Below, piece after piece: positions 11,830 through 40,222 of a stretch of DNA of 64,000 bases. Below the pieces are notes generated by a model. The model searched no databases. It was not told where the DNA came from and was given only the letters and a program-made list of their open reading frames with translations. Source of the stretch: a virus; IMG/VR virus record IMGVR_UViG_3300045988_126367. One strand, 5' to 3'. The position numbers and the translations under genes are program-made. The stretch's first letter is position 1; the number at the start of each line of letters is the position of its first letter.

Positions 11830-12999
11830 ATGGAAAAGTCAACGAAATGTAAAAGCTGTAAACGAGAAGTTCCCGCCAATGCCCCCTTCTGTCCCTGGTG
11901 CGGAAAAAAGCAGATCAAGGAAAAGAAATCTGATGACATCATCAAAGTTCCGGAGCCGGAACAGCTTCCCTCTGGCAGTTGGCGTATCTATCTCCGCGCT
12001 GAAAAGCAATCTATCACAGAGCCAACCAAAGAGAGTTGCATTACAAGAGCCAAAGCCATCCGCGCTGGCTTTATTGAGAAGCAAAAAGAAGCTCCCTCTA
12101 TCACATGGTCTAAAGCAATAGATCAATTTCTTGCAGACAGAACTTCATCGCTTTCCCCTGAAACAATCCGCGGTTATCGTATCATTCAGCGCAATCGTTT
12201 CCCATCCGTCATGCAAAAGCCGATGAACAGCCCTGTCAACTGGCAGGCGGAGGTCAATGCGGCACTTTCTACATTGTCCGATAAGAGCGTTTCCAACTCT
12301 TGGGGACTTATATCGGAGATCATGCGGGTAAACCATATGGAAGTCCCCAACATTCTGATGCCATCCGCAAAAAAGTCCACTGACCGCGATTTTCTTGACC
12401 CGCAGCAGATCTTGACGTTTTGTGACACCATTCGCGGTGACACTTGTGAGAGCGCCATGCTCCTTGGTCTGCACAGCCTTCGCATGTCTGAGATAAAGGC
12501 GTTGAGAATGTCAAAGAACATTGATTTGGAGAACAACCTCATCCACGTTTCCGGTGCAATGGTGCGCGACGAAAAAAACAAGTCCATTTATAAAGACCGC
12601 AACAAAACCACAGCCTCTAATCGAACTGTTCCCATTATGATCCCGCGCCTTGCGGAACTCCTCGCTCAGTGCAAAGGCGAGGATGGATTCTTAGTCCCCC
12701 AACGCCCGTCTACCATCAACAAGCATATTCACGCCGCTGCGGACAGTGCGAAGCTTCCCGACATTACGTCCCACTGTCTGCGCCACTCCTTTGTTTCTCT
12801 TGGTTATCATCTGCGCCTTTCCGAACTTGAAGTCATGGAAATGGGCGGCTGGTCTGATAATCAGGTCGTTCACAGGATTTATCTGCATCTGGCGCGGCGT
12901 GATCGACTCAAGGCCGGAAATAAAATGGCAAAGTTTTATCGCACCGCAGCAAAGATGCTTTCTTCATCCCCAGATACAACAAAAGGTAACGACAAGTAG
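11830..12999 (+). CDS. int: tyrosine recombinase/integrase (int1) with N-terminal zinc ribbon
   Basis: 389 aa; CKSCKREVPANAPFCPWCG; catalytic-region HCLRHSF and HRIYLH. Confidence 0.9.
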   Translation: MEKSTKCKSCKREVPANAPFCPWCGKKQIKEKKSDDIIKVPEPEQLPSGSWRIYLRAEKQSITEPTKESCITRAKAIRAGFIEKQKEAPSITWSKAIDQFLADRTSSLSPETIRGYRIIQRNRFPSVMQKPMNSPVNWQAEVNAALSTLSDKSVSNSWGLISEIMRVNHMEVPNILMPSAKKSTDRDFLDPQQILTFCDTIRGDTCESAMLLGLHSLRMSEIKALRMSKNIDLENNLIHVSGAMVRDEKNKSIYKDRNKTTASNRTVPIMIPRLAELLAQCKGEDGFLVPQRPSTINKHIHAAADSAKLPDITSHCLRHSFVSLGYHLRLSELEVMEMGGWSDNQVVHRIYLHLARRDRLKAGNKMAKFYRTAAKMLSSSPDTTKGNDK

Positions 13000-13352: not shown

Positions 13353-13994
13353 CTATTCCTCACACCACCAAACAGTCTCTCTCCGTACTCCCGCCAAGGC
13401 TGCATCGTCGTGGTGCATCAGGATATCGACGTGGTTTCCTTTCACCCCTGCATCCAGGGCGATGTATGTCTCGTCACCGATAATCACTGTGGAGCCGGTG
13501 GGAATGACGCTGGGATCCGTCGCCACACAGCTGCCGACCCATACCCATTGGCCGCTGGCCGTCAGCACACGGCCATCCTCGTCCCGGTTCATGTGGGCGT
13601 AAGGTGTACAGTCAGCGCAGTAGCCGGTGATGATACATTCCTCAATCACGTTGCTCTTTGCCTTGATGGCCTCCCGCGTCTTTTCTTCTTCGTCTGGATC
13701 TTCCCATGCCACTGGTTCCGACTCTCCTGTGTCTGCCGACTGGATAAGAGGCTCATCCGGTGTAGCGGCAGGCGTGGCTTCCTCTGTGCGCCAGGAGATC
13801 AACAGGCACAGCACAACGGCCAGCACGGTGCCCAAAAGGATTTCCGCCATGATGTGGATGGTGTTCTGAATCGCCACGCGCTTATACTCATCCCGAAGTA
13901 TGGCAAACGGTTCCGGGCAAAGCCCAAACTCCCCCGCCAGCACAATGTTCCGTTCCATTGCGCTGCACACTTCTCTATTTCGTCTCGTCATCAT
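13353..13994 (-). CDS. membrane-anchored 3D-domain (MltA/RlpA-like) cell-wall protein
   Basis: C-terminus TASGQWVWVGSCVATDPSVIPTGSTVIIGDETYIALDAGVKGNHVDI 3D-domain pattern; N-terminal TM; start uncertain. Confidence 0.65.
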   Translation of the reverse strand: MMTRRNREVCSAMERNIVLAGEFGLCPEPFAILRDEYKRVAIQNTIHIMAEILLGTVLAVVLCLLISWRTEEATPAATPDEPLIQSADTGESEPVAWEDPDEEEKTREAIKAKSNVIEECIITGYCADCTPYAHMNRDEDGRVLTASGQWVWVGSCVATDPSVIPTGSTVIIGDETYIALDAGVKGNHVDILMHHDDAALAGVRRETVWWCEE

Positions 13995-14121
13995 CTTTCT
14001 TCACCTCGTAAAGCGGGCATCCGCAATTCACGAAATCAGCGCAGTGTTCGCTGTCCCCGTTGAAGCACGCCCAAGTCCATTCCTCGTGCCATTTACAGCC
14101 GACACAGCATGTATATTTCAT
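13975..14121 (-). CDS. small Cys-rich protein (48 aa)
   Basis: internal Met MKYTCCVGCKWHEEWTWACFNGDSEHCADFVNCGCPLYE; ATGA overlap with Lar-like stop. Confidence 0.4.
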   Translation of the reverse strand: MKYTCCVGCKWHEEWTWACFNGDSEHCADFVNCGCPLYEVKKDDDETK

Positions 14122-14339
14122 TTCCGTATACCTCTCTCCCTTTTCTCTCGCGCAATTGTATTCCAGCGATTTGTAGCGCTGCTCTGTGTGTTGCCCGACA
14201 CAATGAAACCGCAGGAGTAACACCTGACGTAGTACTTCTCCGGGAGGTTCACAGAGCATTTCCGTTCGCCGCTGTCTCTGCCGCAGTGGGGACATACCTC
14301 CAGTTTCCCGCTGGGTTTTCTGTTGTACTGGTTCATCAC
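14118..14339 (-). CDS. Lar-family restriction-alleviation-like zinc-ribbon protein
   Basis: 73 aa; CPHCG...CYSCG plus ATNRWNT resembling the Lar AxxAWNxR tail. Confidence 0.45.
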   Translation of the reverse strand: MMNQYNRKPSGKLEVCPHCGRDSGERKCSVNLPEKYYVRCYSCGFIVSGNTQSSATNRWNTIAREKRERGIRK

Positions 14340-14692
14340 TTATCCTCCTCCGGCAGAATAACGACACCAGCAAGTTCCCCGTTGTCCTCAAAATATTCCG
14401 CGCCGCAACATGACTTGAAAATGTAAGCGTGCCATAAGGCCGCATCCTCCCCATAAACAATACCGATAGTCCGTTCCGGTTTGCGGAAATCTCCGGTCTG
14501 TATCATCAGCGCCGCCTTATGCCGCTTCTTGTCATCAGGTAGTTTTTGTATGCAGCTTCCCTTGTTGGGTGGGGAAGAACCGTTCAGGGGCTTGTTGGGC
14601 TGATAGCCTCGCCCATTGTCCGTTGAAACGATGTCGATAAATGCGGCACCAGCCAGAACGAGGCCGACAAGGACGCCAAAAAAAGTTCCCAA
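14336..14692 (-). CDS. N-terminally anchored membrane protein (paralog-like of 17976-18314)
   Basis: 118 aa; TM at N-terminus; C-terminal TIGIVYGED...NGELAGVVILPE collinear with VIGVVIEEG...DGELCNVILKE. Confidence 0.5.
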   Translation of the reverse strand: MGTFFGVLVGLVLAGAAFIDIVSTDNGRGYQPNKPLNGSSPPNKGSCIQKLPDDKKRHKAALMIQTGDFRKPERTIGIVYGEDAALWHAYIFKSCCGAEYFEDNGELAGVVILPEEDK

Positions 14693-14705
14693 TATGCTTT
14701 CCTCC

Positions 14706-15110
14706 TCACAAATGTACGATCATTGCTCCCTCCAGTATTGAGGGCGTTTTCTTTCCGTTCACCCTCCTCGTGGGCATCGGGTTTATCTTCACCGCCTCCA
14801 TAGGATTTACTGGTAATAATTCCGTCCAGTCTCTGCCGCAAACATAGCACTTGTGGTAAATCTCGGTTCCGCGCTTTTGCACGAGAAGGAGGTTGTGCGT
14901 CTGGCAGCAGGTCGGTGCGTTTTGCCAGACCATCGTCGCATGGCCATCCTCTGTGCGGTGCCAGATAAATCGTCCATTTCCACCGGAGCCTCCTGAACCG
15001 GGCGTACATACACCGGATCCAGGCTCGCAGCCGGCACCACCATTAGCGATGTATGCCGGACCAACTCCACCTGCTCCGCCTGTTCCGAGAGCTTCTATCT
15101 TTCTTTTCAT
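14706..15110 (-). CDS. Gly-rich / Cys-His protein with KCYVCGxDW motif (paralog-like of 18308-18703)
   Basis: start at MKRKIEALGTGGAGG next to the MTase stop; GGSGGNG tract then CC..H..KCYVCGRDW. Confidence 0.5.
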   Translation of the reverse strand: MKRKIEALGTGGAGGVGPAYIANGGAGCEPGSGVCTPGSGGSGGNGRFIWHRTEDGHATMVWQNAPTCCQTHNLLLVQKRGTEIYHKCYVCGRDWTELLPVNPMEAVKINPMPTRRVNGKKTPSILEGAMIVHL

Positions 15111-15112
15111 CT

Positions 15113-15793
15113 TCACCACATCCTTACCTGTGCCGTATGCTCCGCAAACCGCTGCTCTTGCAGTTGAAAGTATGTCGGATCGATCTCGCACCCCACAAAT
15201 TCAAATCCGAGGTTGTAGGCCGCTATCCTGCTGCTTCCACTGCCCAAGTGTGTATCCAGTATGCGCCAGCCTTCCTTGGTGTACTTCTGCAGCAGCCACT
15301 CGTACAATGCCACGGGCTTTTGCGTGGGATGGATCCTCTTTTCGTTCAGCGCCTTGTTGCCCTGCTGCGTTGTGCCGTCCGTGATGCTTTTCCCTTGAAA
15401 CATCCCATTCCACATATAGCGGAATATGCGAACGCTGTCATGACAGTTTGTCGCCGCGATCTCACAGTCCGAAAAAGAACTGTTTTCGTTGCATTTATCC
15501 CAAACGATGCGGCCCGGAGGAAAAACAACATCAAAGTAATTGCATCCCCATACGATATATTTTTTCGTCACGCGCACCAACTCGGAAAAGTAGTCGATGC
15601 CTGGCACGTCCCACTTTGGTGATATGGGATAGTCCCGGTGTACGCCGATGGGGCTGACCTTGCGGCCGTAATACCCTCTGCGTTCCGGTCCGGTGAAATA
15701 CGGCGGGTCTACAATGGCAAGGTCAAACGCCTTATCCGGAAGCGTCCGCATATACGCCATGCAGTCCATGTTCAATGCGATCTGCTCTGCCAT
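15113..15793 (-). CDS. DNA methyltransferase, N4/N6 beta-class
   Basis: IVDPPY (motif IV) N-terminal, HPTQKP, DTHLGSGSS (motif I) C-terminal. Confidence 0.85.
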   Translation of the reverse strand: MAEQIALNMDCMAYMRTLPDKAFDLAIVDPPYFTGPERRGYYGRKVSPIGVHRDYPISPKWDVPGIDYFSELVRVTKKYIVWGCNYFDVVFPPGRIVWDKCNENSSFSDCEIAATNCHDSVRIFRYMWNGMFQGKSITDGTTQQGNKALNEKRIHPTQKPVALYEWLLQKYTKEGWRILDTHLGSGSSRIAAYNLGFEFVGCEIDPTYFQLQEQRFAEHTAQVRMW

Positions 15794-15795
15794 GA

Positions 15796-16518
15796 CTACT
15801 TAGCCTTTCGCAGTTCATTCACGGCATCTATCAGCTCGTTGATTTTGTCTTGCATGACTTGCGTGTCTGGGACGTATCTCATAGTCCCGTTTTCGGACTT
15901 CCACACGCTCCCGCAGTGAAAAATATCCTTGGGCTTCTTCACTACTGCTTTCTCATTCTCCCACCGTCCGATGCGCTTATAGCCCTTGAAGCCGTTTTCC
16001 GCCTCGTACTTGGTGATGCAGTCCTCCTCGCCGTCCGTAAAATGTACGGTCGGCTCATAGAACCCACGCTCCCGGCATTTCTCACACCGGCAGATGCCTT
16101 TGACGTACCCCACCCGGCCATCCACAGTCTCTACATAGTCTCCTTCGTGCAGGTTTCCGGCCAGCATCATCGCATTTGAAAACTTCCTCATATTGGTTTC
16201 CCTCTCTTTCCCATTCCCGAAAATTCTTACCGGCGTAATACCTCTCGGCACTACAACGTAGATTTTGTCGTCCTGTTGATCTTCGTTTTCCGGCTTACAT
16301 TGACGCCGACACGCATCCGCAAGCTCTTCGTAACCGTAATCGCGCCAATCTCCATCAATTTCGCAAAGCGCATAATGGGTCTCATGGTTCTCAATGCAAC
16401 TCAGCGCAGTTTCCAGCCGCTTCCGCGCCTCCTGGCTGTCAATCACACAGCCGTGTACGCTGCCACGCTTCCTGTGGTAAATAACCAAAGACTTCACTTC
16501 TGCTCCTCCACATAGCAC
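15796..16518 (-). CDS. hypothetical protein
   Basis: 240-aa ORF in operon; CRCEKCRERG cluster. Confidence 0.55.
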   Translation of the reverse strand: MLCGGAEVKSLVIYHRKRGSVHGCVIDSQEARKRLETALSCIENHETHYALCEIDGDWRDYGYEELADACRRQCKPENEDQQDDKIYVVVPRGITPVRIFGNGKERETNMRKFSNAMMLAGNLHEGDYVETVDGRVGYVKGICRCEKCRERGFYEPTVHFTDGEEDCITKYEAENGFKGYKRIGRWENEKAVVKKPKDIFHCGSVWKSENGTMRYVPDTQVMQDKINELIDAVNELRKAK

Positions 16519-17036
16519 CAGCTTTGGGGCGGGCGTTTGATCTCATCATCCTCCAACCGCAGCCCCGTTGGATACTCCGGCTTGCGGAACGCCCCCAGCT
16601 CCCGTGGCTGATCGTAGATTTTCAGTTCGGAGATGTGCCAGCCGTAGCCGACGCCCTTGAGATACCGAACGATCTCTTCCCGCGTCAGACAGGCTTGCTG
16701 CTCCACATCGTCTGGTGCATGGTTGAGCGGTGCGAGCTCGTAAATGCGGTCGCAGGTAAACTCGCCAATGACCTTTTGGCGCTTACCCCACATATCGCAG
16801 ATCGAGCCTTCACCGGTCTTAATGAAAACCGTCTTGCCGTGATAGGTCTCCCCATAATTCTCGTCGCCATCTCTTAGGATACCGATGAGCCGTTCCTTCG
16901 CTTTCGTGCAGTAGATATAGCACTTAAACGGCGTTTCCAGTTTTGGGCGCGTCTTGCGAACCTCCACGGTCTTTTCGCCTCTGGCGATCTTCTCGCACCA
17001 CTTCGGGCGGATGCTGATAAGTACGGCCTTGCTCAT
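16494..17036 (-). CDS. ASCH (PUA-like) domain protein
   Basis: start MSKAVLISIRPKWCEKIARGEKTVEVRK typical ASCH opening; ATGA overlap with upstream MTase. Confidence 0.65.
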   Translation of the reverse strand: MSKAVLISIRPKWCEKIARGEKTVEVRKTRPKLETPFKCYIYCTKAKERLIGILRDGDENYGETYHGKTVFIKTGEGSICDMWGKRQKVIGEFTCDRIYELAPLNHAPDDVEQQACLTREEIVRYLKGVGYGWHISELKIYDQPRELGAFRKPEYPTGLRLEDDEIKRPPQSWCYVEEQK

Positions 17037-17668
17037 GCTTTTCCCTCCATTTCCGGCTTCGCCAGCGGCTTGTACACTGTCTGCACACTCCTGATCTGCG
17101 GTGTCAGCCACACGCACCACATCACGTCCATCAATGGGCTGCCGCCGTGGTCATCCTTGAAGAAGAAGTCCGGTCGCCACGTCAGCGGCAGTATGTAGCT
17201 GGGCGGGAACTCCTCAAACAGCTTGGCGCGGCTGGCCGCGTGCCAATACTGTGATTTCAGCAGGAACGCGAAGGGCCGTCTGAGGGACGCCGCCTTACGG
17301 ATGAACTGTTCTGCCAGCTTGAACGGCGGATTGGTGATGATCCAGTCGAAGCTCATGTGCCACTCCGGCGAATCAACTGTAGCCAGAAAATCCAGTCCCA
17401 TGGAGATATCGGTGCCTGACACATGCTCATATCCGCAGCTTTGGATGGCCTTGACCATATCGCCCTCACCTGCTGCCGGCTCCCAGATCATCGTCCGCTG
17501 CGGCAGGTTCAGGAACTCCATCAGCGCCACCGTCACCTCCGGCGGCGTGGGATAAAGGTCGCTTGTCCGCCGCCCCACGGCACTGTTGCCGCCATTGATG
17601 CGGCTTGCCTGCAAACTGTCCATACTGCCCTCCTTACGGTCTATACCAGCCGATGTAGTGGCTCTCAT
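17033..17668 (-). CDS. SAM-dependent DNA N6-adenine methyltransferase-like
   Basis: EPAAGEGDM (motif I) then ITNPPF (motif IV); start may be the internal MDSLQ. Confidence 0.7.
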   Translation of the reverse strand: MRATTSAGIDRKEGSMDSLQASRINGGNSAVGRRTSDLYPTPPEVTVALMEFLNLPQRTMIWEPAAGEGDMVKAIQSCGYEHVSGTDISMGLDFLATVDSPEWHMSFDWIITNPPFKLAEQFIRKAASLRRPFAFLLKSQYWHAASRAKLFEEFPPSYILPLTWRPDFFFKDDHGGSPLMDVMWCVWLTPQIRSVQTVYKPLAKPEMEGKA

Positions 17669-17760
17669 AGAAGATGAACCGGATACCCGGTAGGCACAGA
17701 TAGGTGATCTTTGGATTCTCTACGCTTCTCTTAAACATTTCTTCCTCCCTCCGTTTTCTT

Positions 17761-17979
17761 TCACAATGACGAACTCAGATCAAAGCGTGTAAAGATCCAG
17801 CGCAGGCAGTTGATCAAGTCCGCCTTGCTGATGCTGTTGTGTGTCGCCATGTTTACTACGTTCTCAATAGCCAGCGCCTTGGACTTCTCGGCAATATTGG
17901 GATCATCCAGATGGTTCTTCACGACCTCTATGGAATCTCCCAACGATAGGTTGTAGGTTGGAAATCTCACTGCTTTCAT
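17761..17979 (-). CDS. hypothetical protein
   Basis: internal Met MKAVRFPTYNLSLGD; overlaps upstream stop by 4 nt. Confidence 0.4.
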   Translation of the reverse strand: MKAVRFPTYNLSLGDSIEVVKNHLDDPNIAEKSKALAIENVVNMATHNSISKADLINCLRWIFTRFDLSSSL

Positions 17980-18314
17980 GTCCGTCCTCTCTCCTTCAAA
18001 ATTACATTGCACAACTCTCCGTCGGGCCATCTTTCTTCGCTGGCGTAGTACTTGAGGATCAGGCACTCATAGTAGAAATCGCCCTCCTCTATGACTACGC
18101 CTATTACCCTGTCTCCCAAGCCATCCGGAATGGTTAATGGGACTTTGCCAATTCCAATATCAGCATCATCGGCGCCCTGTGCATCACTGTTCTTGTTGCG
18201 TCTTTCCTGTAAACGCACACCCATCAGAAACCCAAGTCCAAACAGCGCCAATGCCGTCAATATGGCGCGTACAATCGTCAGTGCTTCTCCCATGTTCAGT
18301 TCCTCCTTTACCAT
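17976..18314 (-). CDS. N-terminally anchored membrane protein
   Basis: 112 aa; TM ALTIVRAILTALALFGLGFLMGV; C-terminal similarity to 14336-14692. Confidence 0.5.
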   Translation of the reverse strand: MVKEELNMGEALTIVRAILTALALFGLGFLMGVRLQERRNKNSDAQGADDADIGIGKVPLTIPDGLGDRVIGVVIEEGDFYYECLILKYYASEERWPDGELCNVILKERGRT

Positions 18315-18703
18315 CTCTCCACCTTTGTCAGTATCGGTGCAATTTTTATATCTTTAAGGAGATTTTGCTTTACAGCCGGTATCAGCCAATCGCTCCCGCA
18401 CACATAGCACTTGATGAACTTCATTCTTCCGTGGTCGCAGGAAAGCTCAAGGCAGTGTTCGCTGCACCGGCAGGACTGACCCGTACCATAGAACGTCCAT
18501 AGCTGTCCCGCGCCACCGTTTCCGCGTTGGCCGGCACCAGCGCCGCCATCTCCAGCCTGTGGTGTGTAGGACGCAGGGGATGGCCCATTACCCCTCTTTG
18601 ACTCCTGAAAACTGTCATCCCAAAGGAATTTGAAGCACAGAAATAATGCGTATAGCCATGGTGCCGAAAACAACACGTTCATAATCCAAAAGCCTACATC
18701 CAT
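18308..18703 (-). CDS. TM plus Gly-rich / Cys-His protein with KCYVCGxDW motif
   Basis: start MDVGFWIMNV after GGAGGAG; GDGGAGAGQRGNGGAG tract then C.C..HC...C.H...KCYVCGSDW. Confidence 0.5.
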   Translation of the reverse strand: MDVGFWIMNVLFSAPWLYALFLCFKFLWDDSFQESKRGNGPSPASYTPQAGDGGAGAGQRGNGGAGQLWTFYGTGQSCRCSEHCLELSCDHGRMKFIKCYVCGSDWLIPAVKQNLLKDIKIAPILTKVERW

Positions 18704-18707
18704 GCCC

Positions 18708-19136
18708 TCACTCCTCCATAAACCATATCCCGACAGGGTGCAGGAAGTCACCACACACAATGTTCCGCTCCAAAATGTCTCGAACATTTACATCAGGAAA
18801 TTTTTCGGCCACCAATGTTGCCACACGGTTTCTGCACTCAAGCACATTGTCCTCCTGTATCTCGATGGTGTAGTACGATGCCACAGCAGTGCGGACATCC
18901 TTCAGCGTCTTGCACTTCACCAGCTTTCTGCCGATGATCTCCACAGCAAAGTTCCCAGTGCCACAGCACGGCTCAAGGAACGTTTTTTCAATGTCGAAGG
19001 CGTGTCCATCGTTTTCGGCATCCAACATGTCGCACATCTTTTTGACCATCCATGCGGGGGTAAAGACCTCACCGAACTTCTTAACGCGCTCCTTGCTCTT
19101 TTGCAGAGGCTCTTTCTTCGTACCTTTCGCAGCCAT
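18708..19136 (-). CDS. truncated-looking N6 DNA methyltransferase N-terminal module (no NPPY/F motif seen)
   Basis: GEVFTPAWMV and LEPCCGTGNF (motif X/I of Eco57I/TaqI-like MTases) but only 142 aa; GGGAGGTGG RBS. Confidence 0.55.
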   Translation of the reverse strand: MAAKGTKKEPLQKSKERVKKFGEVFTPAWMVKKMCDMLDAENDGHAFDIEKTFLEPCCGTGNFAVEIIGRKLVKCKTLKDVRTAVASYYTIEIQEDNVLECRNRVATLVAEKFPDVNVRDILERNIVCGDFLHPVGIWFMEE

Positions 19137-19605
19137 ATTCCACCTCCCAGCGTTTCAGGTATTCCGCCCTGTTCTCCACGCACTTCCTGTATGTTGCGAT
19201 GGCAGAGGGAGTGTCGATTCTCACCCACCCGACCATGCGCGGTCCCTTTGCCTTACGGCCCATCCAGGCCGCACGACACGTCTGTGCATAGCACTTGGCG
19301 CAGGTGCGCTTTCCAGCAATATGAGGTGCTCCGCCGCACTTGGCACACAGGCCGTTTGCGTAATACTCTGATTTGGGGATATCCCGCTTCTGCCATATCC
19401 GCTTTTTTTGCGCTTCAATGCGGATGACGGGCGGATGGCCATGCTTTCTTTCAAAACAGTCTTGACACAGCGCCCCGCCGCCAATCGTCAGCGCATCCTC
19501 ATTGCCGCACTCTGTGCAGACATGGTGTGCTCGAAGCCACGCCCTCCGCTCGCGCATATACTCGCGGTGATACGCCCTTTTGTCCTCAATGTTTTTATAG
19601 GCCAT
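19081..19605 (-). CDS. Cys-rich (multi CxxC) protein
   Basis: start MAYKNIEDKRAYHREY after GAGGTG; CTECG, CQDC, CAKCG, CAKC motifs. Confidence 0.5.
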   Translation of the reverse strand: MAYKNIEDKRAYHREYMRERRAWLRAHHVCTECGNEDALTIGGGALCQDCFERKHGHPPVIRIEAQKKRIWQKRDIPKSEYYANGLCAKCGGAPHIAGKRTCAKCYAQTCRAAWMGRKAKGPRMVGWVRIDTPSAIATYRKCVENRAEYLKRWEVEYGCERYEERASAKEQGAR

Positions 19606-19613
19606 GACGCACC

Positions 19614-19916
19614 TCAAAAGCAGAACTCAAGGTAAGACCGGAGATTGGCCTTTGCCCTGCTGATCGTCCGACTCGCCACAGACTTGTCAATCCCATGCCG
19701 CACCGCGATTTCAGTCACCGTCAACCCCTCCGAATAGCGCTCCAATAAGTAGGTCCGCTGCGTGTCTGTCAATTTCGACAGCGCAAGAGGGAGCTTTCTT
19801 TTCAAGCGCAACAGGACTTCTTGATTGTCCTCCCCGTTTTCCTCCCTGTACCTTTGAAGCGACATAAGGACGTCCTGGCATGTATTTTGTAGCCTGGTAG
19901 GCTCGAAATTCTTCAT
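19614..19916 (-). CDS. sigma-70 region-4-like HTH transcription regulator (candidate late activator)
   Basis: LTDTQRTYLLERYSEGLTVTEIAVRHGIDKSVASRTISRAKANLRSYL. Confidence 0.6.
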   Translation of the reverse strand: MKNFEPTRLQNTCQDVLMSLQRYREENGEDNQEVLLRLKRKLPLALSKLTDTQRTYLLERYSEGLTVTEIAVRHGIDKSVASRTISRAKANLRSYLEFCF

Positions 19917-20217
19917 CCAGCCAATACCCCCTTTCGTAATACATCCGGCAGGCGCGTTCCAGACGCCGCAGCTCCCCGCGCACCTGCTTTAGTTTGTTCA
20001 ACACACTCATATCGGAAGATCCTGTTCCACCAGCTATGGCAGCTTCCAACTCCTTGATCCGCCTGTCAATGAGCATTGCACTCTCTGCGTACTGCTCCGC
20101 AATCTCTACCAACAGCATCTCAGCCACCACCGCCTTTCGTGAGGAAATGTGCCCTTTATAGGATTTTGCTACCCGTGTCAAGAACCTTTCCTTGAAAATC
20201 TCAAATTCTGGCCGCAT
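19711..20217 (-). CDS. hypothetical coiled-coil protein; 3' about 200 nt overlaps 19614-19916 out of frame
   Basis: plausible sequence to ...RACRMYYERGYWLDEEF, then low-quality readthrough; start (ATG 20217 or GTG 20244) uncertain. Confidence 0.35.
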   Translation of the reverse strand: MRPEFEIFKERFLTRVAKSYKGHISSRKAVVAEMLLVEIAEQYAESAMLIDRRIKELEAAIAGGTGSSDMSVLNKLKQVRGELRRLERACRMYYERGYWLDEEFRAYQATKYMPGRPYVASKVQGGKRGGQSRSPVALEKKAPSCAVEIDRHAADLLIGALFGGVDGD

Positions 20218-20397
20218 CTCATCACCAGCCCACCCTTGCTCCACCCTTCACCCACCAACTTGCTGGCAACTTGCCGCCGCCCCGCCACATGCCCTTCACC
20301 TATATGGCGCTTTGCGCCCGACGATATTTTATTTTGGGGCCTCCCCTTTTGGGCAAACGCTTTTTCGCCTTCCATTTCTAAACTACCCCCCACCCGC

Positions 20398-20511
20398 AAT
20401 CTTGCGTCTAACTTGCGTGTAACTTGCGTCCATCTTGGTACTAACTTGGGACTTGGTTCCAATAAGTCATCTTTGGAGTTGGGTATGGGAACATGGAGTT
20501 AGGAACATGGG
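20398..20511 (+). repeat. two sets of tandem direct repeats in a gene-free region
   Basis: about 5 x 11-nt (T)AACTTGCGTN/AACTTGGGAC units (20398-20456), then 2 x GGAGTTRGG..GGAACATGG (20475-20511). Confidence 0.6.
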
Positions 20512-21455
20512 GACGGGGGGAAGAGTTACCTACTGGGTACGCCAAATTTCCGCCCTCGGAATTGCAAACCACCCCCTCCCCGCCCCCGCGGAGCCGCCGC
20601 CCCGCCGACGCCCCGCCGACGTTCTTGCAAGTTCTCCCGTCATTCTGCCGCCACTCCGTTTCGATAACATCCGTTATCACAACCGACGCCCCCGATTCCT
20701 GCAAGATTCCCTGCATTTCCGCCCTCTCCCCCCGTTCCGCCGCCCGTCTCCGACGCTCCGCCCCTCTCCGCCTGCCGCCTGCGCGTCCGGATGGCGAGAC
20801 GGAGCCGCCCCCGCTCTCCGCCCTCACCGCCTGAACATGCCCGCCGCGGTGACTCCTCTCCCTTCCCCTCGCCCTGGCTCTCCTCTGGTCTCCGCTGCCG
20901 GTGGCTGGTCTGGAGCGCCGACGCCCTCACAAGCTGAGGCCCTGCCCTTCGATCTGTCTTCTTCTGGCTCTCCCCTTGATGGCGTTTTACAAGAGAATAT
21001 TCTACTCATCACAACCGCGCGGGGAATAAACGCGCGCGCACGCGTAAGGGCCTGCCGTTGGTCTTCCCCGTCTCTTTGCCATTTTAACGGCTGCTGGTGC
21101 TGTTTTTCTTTGGGGGTCTGTGTTCCTGTACTCCCCCGACGCTTGGTGGGGCTTCTGGGGCTTCCTGTGGCGTTTCTGCGCTTCCGGCGTATTTCTGAGG
21201 GCATACCGCGCAGGCGGGAAAGCCTGCCGGATGCCCTGACGATCTGCGGGGCTGGCGGGGCTTCCCGGCTGCCATTGGCGGCCATTGGTGGCGGCCTGGG
21301 GCGAAAAATCCACACAAAAAAAGAAAGAGCGCCGGCGGTTTCCGGTGCCCTCTCTGGCTCGTATGAAATATGTCAGGCGGTGAACCACCTGCCGCGCCCT
21401 TCCGGGGCGATATTGTACCGCTTTTCTCCGCTGTTGCTCATATCCTCGCCCCCTC

Positions 21456-36850: not shown

Positions 36851-38056
36851 TTATTTCTTTTCCACCGTTGTGACAAACGTCTCCGGAAACACCTTCTGTA
36901 CCTTCTTCAAATACGCTTCCGCGTTGGCCTTCACGCTGAACGCACCCACCTGAACCCGATAGATCACGTTCCCCGCCGTGGCCGGCTTGCTGGCCGCCGC
37001 CTTGAACGTCACACCCAGATAGCTGCAGATGCCCTTGGCGATGGTCTCGCCGATCAACTCCGTGTTGTCGATGATCCACTGTGCCACCTCCGGCACATCG
37101 TGGAAATCCACCTCAATGTACACCGTAGGAGCGGCAGGCGTTTTCACTTCAAACAGATTGGGGTTGGCCTTGATGTTCTCGCTTGTCCCCGGCGTCAGCG
37201 GGGCCAGCACATCGAATACGGCCTTCGCCGCCTTGTACCCTTCCGTGGTCTTGTCCAGCTGATAGCAGAAGATCCGCGTCCCGCTGGCCTTGCCGTTGGC
37301 TGCGTTGGTGTGGATGGGCACATGCAGATTGGCCTTAAAGGCGTCCGACGCCTTGCACCGGTTCGCCATCGTGTCGTACTGTCCCACCATCACCTTCACG
37401 CCGCTGCGCTCCAGCGCCGTCTTGCAGGCCGCAGCGATCTTCCCGCACTGCACGTCCTCCGTGGTGTTGCCCACGGCGTAGGTGTTGCTTTTCTGATCCG
37501 ATGGTGAAAGATATACCCGCTTTTCCATCGTCTCCTCCTTCTCTCCGTAGGGCGGGCGGAAGATGGCCCATGTCCCGCCCGTGGGCATGTTCCGCTTCTT
37601 GTACCCGATGCCCTCAAAGGCGCCCGTCCCCGCGGTGGATAGCCGCGCCTTCTCCGCCGTGGAGAATACCATGTTGTTCCCCTCCAGCGTGATGAACGTG
37701 GTGCCGCTCACCTTCTCATAGACAAAGAACACATGCTGGTACATCCACCGCTTTTCCTTCTCGTTGTACTGGCAGAAAAAGGCGATGTCCCCCTTCTGCG
37801 CCTTGCTGTTGTCGCGCAGCCGCCAGCCCTTGGCCGTCAGCCACTCGCCCAGGCTGCGGCACCACGCGGGGTTGGCGCACCCGTCCAGGATGTAGGGCTT
37901 CCCGCTCATCCGGTCGGCGTACCAGATGGTGTACCCGCAGTACGCCACTCCCTCCGCGTTCCAGTATCGGTTTACCATGGTGTTGTTGCCGCTGCCGGTC
38001 TCCCGTTCTCCCGCCAGCTTCTCTACAGGAGCCAGCATTTGAGATACAGTTTTCAT
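36851..38056 (-). CDS. modular endolysin: CHAP/NlpC-P60-like peptidase, N-acetylmuramoyl-L-alanine amidase (Amidase_3-like), SPOR domain
   Basis: GVAYCGYTIW...QHVFFVYE (Cys/His peptidase); VPIHTNAANGKASGTRIF...YIEVDFHD (amidase_3); C-terminal YRVQVGAFSVKANAEAYLKKV (SPOR). Confidence 0.8.
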   Translation of the reverse strand: MKTVSQMLAPVEKLAGERETGSGNNTMVNRYWNAEGVAYCGYTIWYADRMSGKPYILDGCANPAWCRSLGEWLTAKGWRLRDNSKAQKGDIAFFCQYNEKEKRWMYQHVFFVYEKVSGTTFITLEGNNMVFSTAEKARLSTAGTGAFEGIGYKKRNMPTGGTWAIFRPPYGEKEETMEKRVYLSPSDQKSNTYAVGNTTEDVQCGKIAAACKTALERSGVKVMVGQYDTMANRCKASDAFKANLHVPIHTNAANGKASGTRIFCYQLDKTTEGYKAAKAVFDVLAPLTPGTSENIKANPNLFEVKTPAAPTVYIEVDFHDVPEVAQWIIDNTELIGETIAKGICSYLGVTFKAAASKPATAGNVIYRVQVGAFSVKANAEAYLKKVQKVFPETFVTTVEKK

Positions 38057-39119: not shown

Positions 39120-39389
39120 TCACTCGCCCTCGCTCGCCCCATTCTCCGCAACCTCCACCCCCAACGTCTCCAGCGCCTCGGCATACAGTGCGGCGGCCTG
39201 CACCGCCTCTTCCTCCGCCGTCAGCACCTCCACGCCGTCGCGGTAAAACCTGCCGTCCTCATAGGTGTCGCCGATCTCCACCTGCCGCTCCCCCAGCTTC
39301 ACCGCGCCGGGGAATTCGTCGGCGTTGGTCTCATACAGCCAGATGATGTTGGTCACGATCCCGTTTTCTACCAGTGCGTAATTCATCAC
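39120..39389 (-). CDS. hypothetical protein
   Basis: 89-aa ORF, ATGA overlap with upstream gene. Confidence 0.5.
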   Translation of the reverse strand: MMNYALVENGIVTNIIWLYETNADEFPGAVKLGERQVEIGDTYEDGRFYRDGVEVLTAEEEAVQAAALYAEALETLGVEVAENGASEGE

Positions 39390-40222
39390 GCCACCTCCTT
39401 GTGCTTGCGCATGATCACGATGCCGGAGCCACCTGCACCGCCGACGCCAGCAGCCTTATAGCTGTGTGAGCCAATGGTGTAATTGGCGCCACCGCCGCCG
39501 CCGCCGCCGCCGCCGCCTTTATTTACCCCGCCGGCAACACCGGCACCGGCTACACCATTTATTTGTTGTTCTGAATATATGAATCCTCCTGCACCACTAC
39601 CGCCGCTTCCTCCGCCGGCAGCACCCGATCCAGGACTTCCAGCGGTTTTATACAGACCGCCAGAGGGTGGCTTCATGCCTCCGCCGCCACCGCCGCCGCC
39701 GCCGCCACCGTAATATGTGCCACCGGATTCGCCAAACTCCGGAGTCCCTGGACTGCCAACGCCTCCGGTCCCTGCGGCGCTTGTGGTACTCGTTCCTCTA
39801 CTGCCACCAGCACCACCGGAAGCTCCGCCACCACCTGCCGCGCTTTGTCCCAATGCCATTGTAGTGCCGCCGCTGCCGCCGACGACAATGTTATAACTGG
39901 TGCCCTTTGTAGCAGTAAGCGACTTCACGGTTTTTACCGCTCCCCCAGTCCCGCCACGACCTCCAGCACCAGGGAATGTGCCACCACCAGCAACTCCGGA
40001 GTTTCCGGCAGCGCCGCCCCCCACCAGAAACAGATCCACCAGCCAGTCGGCGGTCAGCACCGTCAGCGTCCCCGAGGTCAAAAATTTAATGCGCCACTGC
40101 ACCTCGTCCCCCACACTGTCGTCGATCACCTGACAATTTCCGGAATAGGAAAAATCCTCCCCCAGAACCGGTACGTGGTCTTTGGTGTTCTTCAGCACCG
40201 GCGACGTCATGTTAAAGATCAT
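39386..40222 (-). CDS. glycine-rich tail-fibre-associated protein
   Basis: 278 aa; LVDLFLVGGGAAGNSG then long GGxGG tracts including poly-Gly encoded by (GCC)n runs. Confidence 0.6.
   Translation of the reverse strand: MIFNMTSPVLKNTKDHVPVLGEDFSYSGNCQVIDDSVGDEVQWRIKFLTSGTLTVLTADWLVDLFLVGGGAAGNSGVAGGGTFPGAGGRGGTGGAVKTVKSLTATKGTSYNIVVGGSGGTTMALGQSAAGGGGASGGAGGSRGTSTTSAAGTGGVGSPGTPEFGESGGTYYGGGGGGGGGGGMKPPSGGLYKTAGSPGSGAAGGGSGGSGAGGFIYSEQQINGVAGAGVAGGVNKGGGGGGGGGGANYTIGSHSYKAAGVGGAGGSGIVIMRKHKEVA

Follow-up and report, generated by a model that had tools for sequence, protein, structure and literature searches.

The 64,000-nucleotide stretch of viral DNA in the IMG/VR record IMGVR_UViG_3300045988_126367, analysed here at its full length and referred to as the window, carries two copies of a small gene pair in a single minus-strand operon: a gene for a Gly-rich Cys/His protein (ZnF) followed by a gene for a membrane protein with one N-terminal anchor (Mem). 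What these pairs do, and whether they belong with the genes around them, is the question that the locus raises. A first, sequence-only reading had observed that each pair lies directly downstream of a methyltransferase-type gene and had suggested an accessory role in DNA modification or a part in counter-defence. Translation of the open reading frames (ORFs) recovers all six genes of the two cassettes on the minus strand, where that reading had placed them: a methyltransferase-like fragment, ZnF1 (131 residues; 18308–18703) and Mem1 (about 105 residues; 17976–18293) in one copy, and a complete methyltransferase, ZnF2 (134 residues, soluble; 14706–15110) and Mem2 (118 residues, TTG start; 14336–14692) in the other. 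ZnF and Mem are two lineage-restricted orphan families, and they are not methyltransferase partners. Our favoured reading, held tentatively at a probability of about 0.42, is that they are separable and exchangeable accessory factors, encoded in a variable slot of an operon for DNA modification, that act on the inner side of the membrane in phage conflict.

The ZnF and Mem families

ZnF1 and ZnF2 are paralogues. They align with 35% identity over 68 residues (BLASTP; E value of 2e-8), and the profiles of the ZnF1-type and ZnF2-type families (21 and 20 clusters, respectively) align with a probability of 100% and an E value of 1.6e-40 (hhalign), with the Gly-rich part inside the alignment. These statistics bear out a likeness first seen by eye, by which the Gly-rich Cys/His proteins had been taken for duplicates: both contain the motif KCYVCG(S/R)DW and an (I/V)KI(A/N)P tail. 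C-terminal tails have been swapped between the subfamilies, a '...PTKWENGK..IPEG..IV.L' tail being present in both. The conserved core, C-C (or CxC)-x2-H ... G ... K-C-Y-V-C-G-(R/S)-(D/E)-W, includes putative ligands that are invariant or nearly so in the ZnF alignment (C68, C69, H72, C88 and C91) and is predicted to be zinc-ribbon-like.

ZnF1 consists of an N-terminal hydrophobic anchor, a Gly-rich segment, the core (CRCSEHC...KCYVCGSDW) and the KIAP tail. In most ZnF1-type relatives, the N-terminal part combines a hydrophobic segment with an additional zinc ribbon of the classical type (NEYYxCxxCG...RCPxCG); this ribbon matches the Pfam families zf-ChsH2 in 12 of 35 members and TFIIS in 11 of 35, with a best E value of 6e-7. 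The ribbon, which is about 42 residues long and lies after the hydrophobic N-terminus and ahead of the Gly-rich segment, is missing from ZnF1 of the window, and the relative P0028 shows the same deletion. ZnF2 has a conserved Gly-rich N-terminus, a core of the form CC..H...KCYVCGRDW and a Pro/Lys-rich tail. It contains no transmembrane segment, the best 19-residue hydropathy of ZnF2-type proteins being 0.53; the value for ZnF1-type proteins is 1.82, with Lys plus Arg counts of 0 before the segment and 2.7 after it. An AlphaFold2 (AF2) model of ZnF2 built on a 35-sequence alignment has a mean predicted local distance difference test score (pLDDT) of 46.6. Residues ∼62–100, the only part to reach ∼70, are modelled as short β-strands, flanked by a disordered Gly-rich N-terminus and a disordered tail. 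Despite this modelled disorder, the Gly-rich segment is conserved and under purifying selection: the ratio of nonsynonymous to synonymous polymorphism (pN/pS) is 0.35 in the Gly-rich part and 0.31 in the core of ZnF2, and the segment is in frame even at loci for which a start further downstream had been called.

Mem1 and Mem2 are more distant from each other. BLASTP aligns only their transmembrane segments (E value of 0.013), but a profile of Mem1 (four members) aligns with a profile of Mem2 (43 members) over the C-terminal 60 columns with 32% identity, a probability of 81.5% and an E value of 1.1e-5. The collinear C-terminal pattern that had been noted by eye thus holds up in the profile alignment, and the two are probably paralogous. 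Mem1 contains a transmembrane helix, an acidic linker and a C-terminal β domain; in the AF2 model of Mem2, a transmembrane helix (residues 4–23) is followed by a disordered Pro-rich linker and a five-stranded β domain (residues 60–112) with a pLDDT of 82–91. For Mem, the best 19-residue hydropathy is 2.56 and the Lys plus Arg count is 0.09 on the N-terminal side of the helix versus 2.21 in the 15 residues that follow it. By the positive-inside rule, Mem and the ZnF1-type proteins are predicted to be oriented N-out/C-in, which would place their folded domains in the cytoplasm. The Mem family comprises at least 179 clusters at 90% identity, none of them named, and one of these clusters occurs in 311 blocks of the collection.

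The two pairs are also alike in how their genes are joined. At the ZnF1/Mem1 junction, the stop codon is followed by AGGAGG, seven nucleotides and ATG-GGA; at the ZnF2/Mem2 junction, the stop codon (TGA) is followed by GGAGG, eight nucleotides and TTG-GGA, so that both share a stop–Shine-Dalgarno–start layout. The Mem1 reading frame is open to 18314, as the sequence-only reading had it, but the ATG at 18314 is the less likely start. The ATG at 18293 (MGEAL...) is favoured because the AGGAGG sequence lies directly after the ZnF1 stop codon, seven nucleotides ahead of it. Judging from their divergence (∼35% identity for ZnF and 25–32% for Mem), the two ZnF–Mem segments appear to be old paralogues. 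A single segmental duplication, or recombination between phages with the segment at different slots, would most likely have brought the two copies together.

Searches outside the lineage returned little. Pfam, PHROGs and PADLOC scans of ZnF1, ZnF2, Mem1 and Mem2 gave no meaningful match, PADLOC-DB at E ≤ 0.1 gave none for these proteins or their neighbours, and sequence-profile searches of the Protein Data Bank (PDB) with ZnF and Mem gave no match. In Foldseek searches of the AF2 models of ZnF and Mem against the PDB, and of Mem also against BFVD, nothing was found at E < 0.1; the top matches of the ZnF core, which are not significant (best E value 0.55), are zinc ribbons such as those of Elf1, eIF2-beta and NrdR. 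Exhaustive HMMER comparison of the ZnF profile with 1.84 billion representative proteins retrieved 13 proteins only. Neither ZnF nor Mem was found in the GTDB representative genomes, and the distant ZnF relatives P0164 and P0166 have no loci in IMG/VR. Within the window, a relationship of Mem to a neighbouring 240-residue protein was rejected (probability of 0.3%), and the Gly-rich part of ZnF2 gave no alignment with the Gly_rich_2 tail protein encoded at 39386–40222.

Gene neighbourhoods and separability

Gene neighbourhoods were surveyed at 66 loci from ∼45 related phage contigs, in which ZnF, Mem and nine further window proteins were scored on six-frame ORFs. The pairs occupy two slots. Slot A has the gene order sigma-70-region-4 gene, ZnF1, Mem1, a 72-residue gene, a 34-residue gene and an NPPF methyltransferase gene, and in every locus other than the window (L009–L016, L066 and L147) the ZnF1-type gene comes directly after the sigma-70-region-4 gene or the partner ORF that overlaps it. 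In the window alone, a Cys-rich gene and the truncated methyltransferase gene are inserted ahead of ZnF1; no related locus has them at this position. Slot B consists of a DPPY methyltransferase or other gene, an optional ZnF2, an optional Mem2, a Lar-like gene and a gene for a 3D-domain protein. Its commonest state is ZnF with Mem; it contains Mem only in L017–L026, L040, L042 and L045, ZnF only in L046, L047, L051 and L054, and neither in L009, L012 and L015, which have a dGTP_diPhyd_N gene instead. Among the sampled genomes, the window alone has both slots filled.

The association with methyltransferase genes does not recur in a specific manner. By our counts over distinct contigs, which are approximate, the DPPY methyltransferase gene lies directly upstream of ZnF2 in ∼17 of 29 contigs (∼60%) and is about as frequent in loci without ZnF; ∼12 distinct contigs have ZnF2 without the methyltransferase and ∼11 have the methyltransferase without ZnF, which corresponds to a rough odds ratio of ∼0.8. 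These tallies indicate no specific linkage of ZnF to the methyltransferase. Taken with the ZnF1 loci, in which the sigma-type gene stands in the upstream position, the survey contradicts the recurrent linkage expected from the sequence-only reading, which had itself named a survey of this outcome as telling against its proposal. An accessory or specificity partner of the methyltransferase was therefore rejected on the neighbourhoods of all 66 loci.

ZnF and Mem are separable from each other as well. Searches of whole IMG/VR records identified four genomes (G001–G004) that are 97–100% complete (CheckV), two of them with terminal repeats, and that contain ZnF without Mem anywhere; two further genomes (G006 and G008), 100% complete and with terminal repeats, contain Mem without ZnF. 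Since each gene occurs alone in complete genomes, ZnF and Mem do not form an obligate pair, and an obligate two-component phage module of the Rex-like or toxin–antitoxin-like kind is ruled out by these six genomes. Strict covariation of ZnF tail type with Mem subtype was looked for as a sign of interaction and was not found.

Possible roles at the membrane

In our favoured reading, the ZnF and Mem products would do their work on the cytoplasmic side of the membrane. Mem would span it N-out/C-in with its β domain inside the cell, and ZnF would be self-anchored or possibly docked on Mem. Each factor would be functional singly and could be swapped, in conflict between phage and host or between phages, for example by blocking DNA entry or a membrane-associated host function. 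The conflict role is suggested solely by the theme of the operon and the hotspot-like pattern of presence and absence, and a counter-defence role is possible by operon-level association only. Several points weigh against this reading. The ZnF model is of low confidence overall, and zinc binding is deduced from the conserved Cys and His residues alone. The Mem topology is based solely on the positive-inside rule, and the Pro-rich linker of Mem2 would fit an extracellular stalk too. The paralogy of Mem1 and Mem2, at 81% probability and an E value of 1e-5, is not beyond doubt. Furthermore, Mem directly follows ZnF in most ZnF loci, so that a real partnership may have been underrated.

Such a partnership is possible, although on balance unlikely. 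Mem would then be an anchor and ZnF an adaptor or sensor docking on its cytoplasmic β domain, in a Rex-like or Sie-like arrangement, with single-gene genomes explained by decay or partial redundancy. The constant gene order in both slots at most loci, with a spacer that is always 13–14 nucleotides and contains a Shine-Dalgarno sequence, fits this well, as do the similar divergence of ZnF and Mem between the two copies and the fact that ZnF1-type proteins have their own anchor and soluble ZnF2 would need one. Against it stand the complete genomes with only one of the genes and the lack of strict covariation of tail type and subtype. Moreover, one segmental duplication accounts for adjacency at both slots without a functional link; because one duplication, or recombination of a slot-A phage with a slot-B phage, gives both gene orders, the double adjacency amounts to one observation rather than two. 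We consider distinctly unlikely a further proposal, that ZnF and Mem make up a new modular membrane-face conflict device found in Oscillospiraceae gut phages only. The cytoplasmic β domain of Mem, a single-pass anchor, would there recruit ZnF as a sensor or adaptor, and ZnF would use its Gly-rich segment and tail to bind either a protein of the host's defences or incoming nucleic acid. That either gene can be lost would then be explained by the two versions of ZnF, the ZnF1-type with an anchor of its own and the ZnF2-type dependent on one.

The neighbouring genes suggest three other roles. Regulation of the upstream sigma-region-4 protein by ZnF with Mem, in the manner of a membrane-tethered, anti-sigma-like zinc protein, would account for the tight triad of sigma-type gene, ZnF1 and Mem1 in L012, L013, L015, L016 and L066 and for the combination of a transmembrane anchor with zinc domains in ZnF1. 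It is nevertheless improbable: ZnF2 never adjoins a sigma-like gene, in the window ZnF1 and the sigma-like gene have two genes between them, the complete genome G008 has the sigma-like gene and no ZnF, and the predicted core is β rather than the helical HxxxCxxC anti-sigma domain. More improbable still is that the pair serves the adjacent DNA methyltransferase in targeting, regulation or specificity. Both pairs of the window do follow a methyltransferase-type gene, the DPPY enzyme is the upstream neighbour at most ZnF2 loci and the entire operon is devoted to DNA modification, but the slot-A neighbourhoods and the tallies given above speak otherwise, and a membrane anchor would be odd for a cofactor of DNA methylation. 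Very improbable, finally, is an envelope module in which Mem, with or without ZnF, would act with the membrane-anchored 3D-domain hydrolase as a holin-like or hydrolase-regulating protein. Mem is small and single-pass, and the Mem2, Lar-like and 3D-domain genes form a conserved operon end in most loci, but Mem1 is distant from the 3D-domain gene, genomes with the 3D-domain gene and without Mem exist, the predicted topology places the Mem domain in the cytoplasm, and the canonical endolysin (CHAP + Amidase_3 + SPOR; 36851–38056) is encoded 23 kilobases (kb) away. A holin or lysis cassette was rejected on the distance between this endolysin gene and the Mem genes at 14.3 and 18.0 kb and on the single transmembrane helix of Mem.

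Comparison with known systems gives partial likenesses. Lar proteins (PF14354) are likewise small, Cys-rich, phage-encoded and found in operons of anti-restriction type, and the second knuckle of ZnF (KCYVCG) resembles that of the neighbouring Lar-like gene (RCYSCG). The first knuckle, in contrast, is CC/CxC..H in ZnF and CPxCG in Lar, and ZnF adds the Gly-rich segment, the tail and optional N-terminal modules. Membership of ZnF in the Lar family was rejected, with no Pfam match for ZnF1 or ZnF2 and an hhalign probability of 3% over 11 columns against the Lar-like neighbours. Rubredoxin-like zinc ribbons (zf-ChsH2, PF12172; TFIIS Zn ribbon, PF01096) are matched by the additional ribbon that most ZnF1-type relatives have near the N-terminus, but neither ZnF copy in the window has this ribbon and the KCYVCG core matches no model. 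Zinc-binding anti-sigma (ZAS) proteins were also rejected: ZnF lacks the HxxxCxxC motif, its predicted core is β, the transmembrane segment of ZnF1 is N-terminal to its zinc domains and G008 carries the sigma-like gene without ZnF.

Among membrane-associated systems, lactococcal Sie2009 is a small membrane-anchored superinfection-exclusion protein of Gram-positive prophages. Mem resembles proteins of this type in size (∼100–170 residues), in its single N-terminal transmembrane anchor and in being encoded by a patchily distributed phage accessory gene, although no sequence or fold similarity to them was found. Sie2009-type genes are located between the repressor and the integrase, whereas attP separates that location from the long operon to which Mem belongs. 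RexA/RexB of phage lambda and gp30/gp31 of mycobacteriophage Sbash combine a cytoplasmic sensor with a membrane effector in prophage defence; both are obligate pairs with a polytopic membrane partner. The order of a soluble-protein gene followed by a membrane-protein gene in a temperate phage is the same for ZnF and Mem, which differ in that each occurs alone in complete genomes, that Mem has one transmembrane helix and that there is no PADLOC match.

The operon and its phage

The operon is the last of the phage and runs on the minus strand from 19.9 to 13.35 kb, from the sigma-region-4 regulator to the 3D-domain protein. At its head are a coiled-coil ORF (19711–20244, start at 20244) and the sigma-70-region-4-like regulator (19614–19916; Pfam Sigma70_r4_2, E value of 4e-8), which overlap by 205 nucleotides. 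Near 19900, the frame that shows third-position variability changes from the first to the second, and callers choose different frames among relatives; 19614–20244 contains either overlapping genes or a recoding site. A 178-residue Cys-rich protein (19081–19617) precedes the methyltransferase-like fragment upstream of ZnF1 (142 residues; 18708–19136). As the sequence-only reading had described, this fragment contains FTP and LEPCCGTGNF and lacks NPPY/F; it retains motifs X and I only, corresponding to the N-terminal part of an N6 methyltransferase (Pfam N6_Mtase, E value of 5e-4, below the cut-off; phrog_21201, 5.5e-17). Mem1 is followed by a 73-residue protein (17761–17982), a complete NPPF N6-adenine methyltransferase (17033–17668; phrog_799, E value of 3e-42), an ASCH protein (16494–17120; Pfam and PHROG scans) and the 240-residue protein mentioned above (15796–16518). 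Upstream of ZnF2 lies the DPPY N6_N4 DNA methyltransferase (15113–15793), which is complete, as had been thought (Pfam E value of 3e-16; phrog_23224, 1e-55). The Lar-like zinc ribbon that follows Mem2 (14118–14339) is a weak match (Pfam Lar_restr_allev, E value of 0.0034, below the cut-off) and forms the right flank of the variable slot, kept in all loci. Three methyltransferase-type genes, the ASCH gene and this Lar-like match make up the anti-restriction-type setting in which the pairs had been placed. A 48-residue ORF between the Lar-like and 3D-domain genes (13975–14121, minus strand) encodes eight Cys residues (MKYTCCVGCKWHEEWTWACFNGDSEHCADFVNCGCPLYE...) and is kept in relatives, for example inside a 71-residue product (L023:4083–4298). 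The membrane-anchored 3D-domain protein (13353–13994; Pfam 3D, E value of 5.5e-7) is one of two wall-active proteins of the phage, the other being the endolysin at 36851–38056; given this canonical endolysin, the 3D-domain protein is not the main lysin.

In relatives, the operon also carries MT-A70, PAPS-reductase-like, HNH, DUF4406 and dGTP-diphosphohydrolase-like genes, which identifies it as an accessory module of DNA modification and nucleotide metabolism with interchangeable cargo. The dGTP_diPhyd_N (MazZ-like), DUF4406/nucleoside-deoxyribosyltransferase-like, PAPS-reductase-like and MT-A70 genes among them (L009:10417–10881, L012:8793–9245, L017:804–1310 and neighbours) are hints of base modifications other than methylation. 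The MazZ-like gene of some phages sits in the exact slot that ZnF2 and Mem2 occupy here.

The window most likely comes from the non-integrated genome of a temperate phage of ∼64–90 kb with a gut Oscillospiraceae host. Beyond an attP-like gap after the 3D-domain gene lies the integrase gene (11830–12999, plus strand). Phage genes flank it on either side, an arrangement shared with several contigs of 70–82 kb, and on this basis the window is read as a phage genome in its attP form. The 3D-domain gene directly precedes attP in every relative. In L021, a contig of 149 kb, the operon likewise stops at this gene and bacterial genes begin right after it, marking a prophage junction, and the bacterial flank matches Oscillospiraceae metagenome-assembled genomes and isolates (Vescimonas and Oscillibacter) at 81–99% identity.

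Two other regions of the window were noted. The ∼1.2 kb upstream of the sigma-like operon (20240–21410) contain no credible ORF and are 73–77% identical at the DNA level in at least six related phage contigs, with variable sites that lack three-base periodicity; no Rfam match to this region was found, and a large non-coding RNA, a regulatory region or an origin are candidates for what it contains. Four tRNA genes are clustered at 31674–32443 on the plus strand, opposite in orientation to most genes of the phage; ARAGORN assigns them as Phe(aaa), Arg(ccg), Ser(gga) and Gly(tcc), and Rfam confirms three of the four.

At present, the finding is a well-documented orphan gene pair, and recognizing its methyltransferase link as incidental spares follow-up effort in that direction. 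Should a function be found, two new phage protein families would be defined: ZnF, with a zinc-ribbon core present in only 13 representative clusters of 1.84 billion proteins, and Mem, a small membrane-anchored β domain that is frequent within a single lineage of phages abundant in the human gut. The variable slot between the DPPY methyltransferase gene and the Lar-like gene would then be marked as a site at which these phages exchange accessory cargo.

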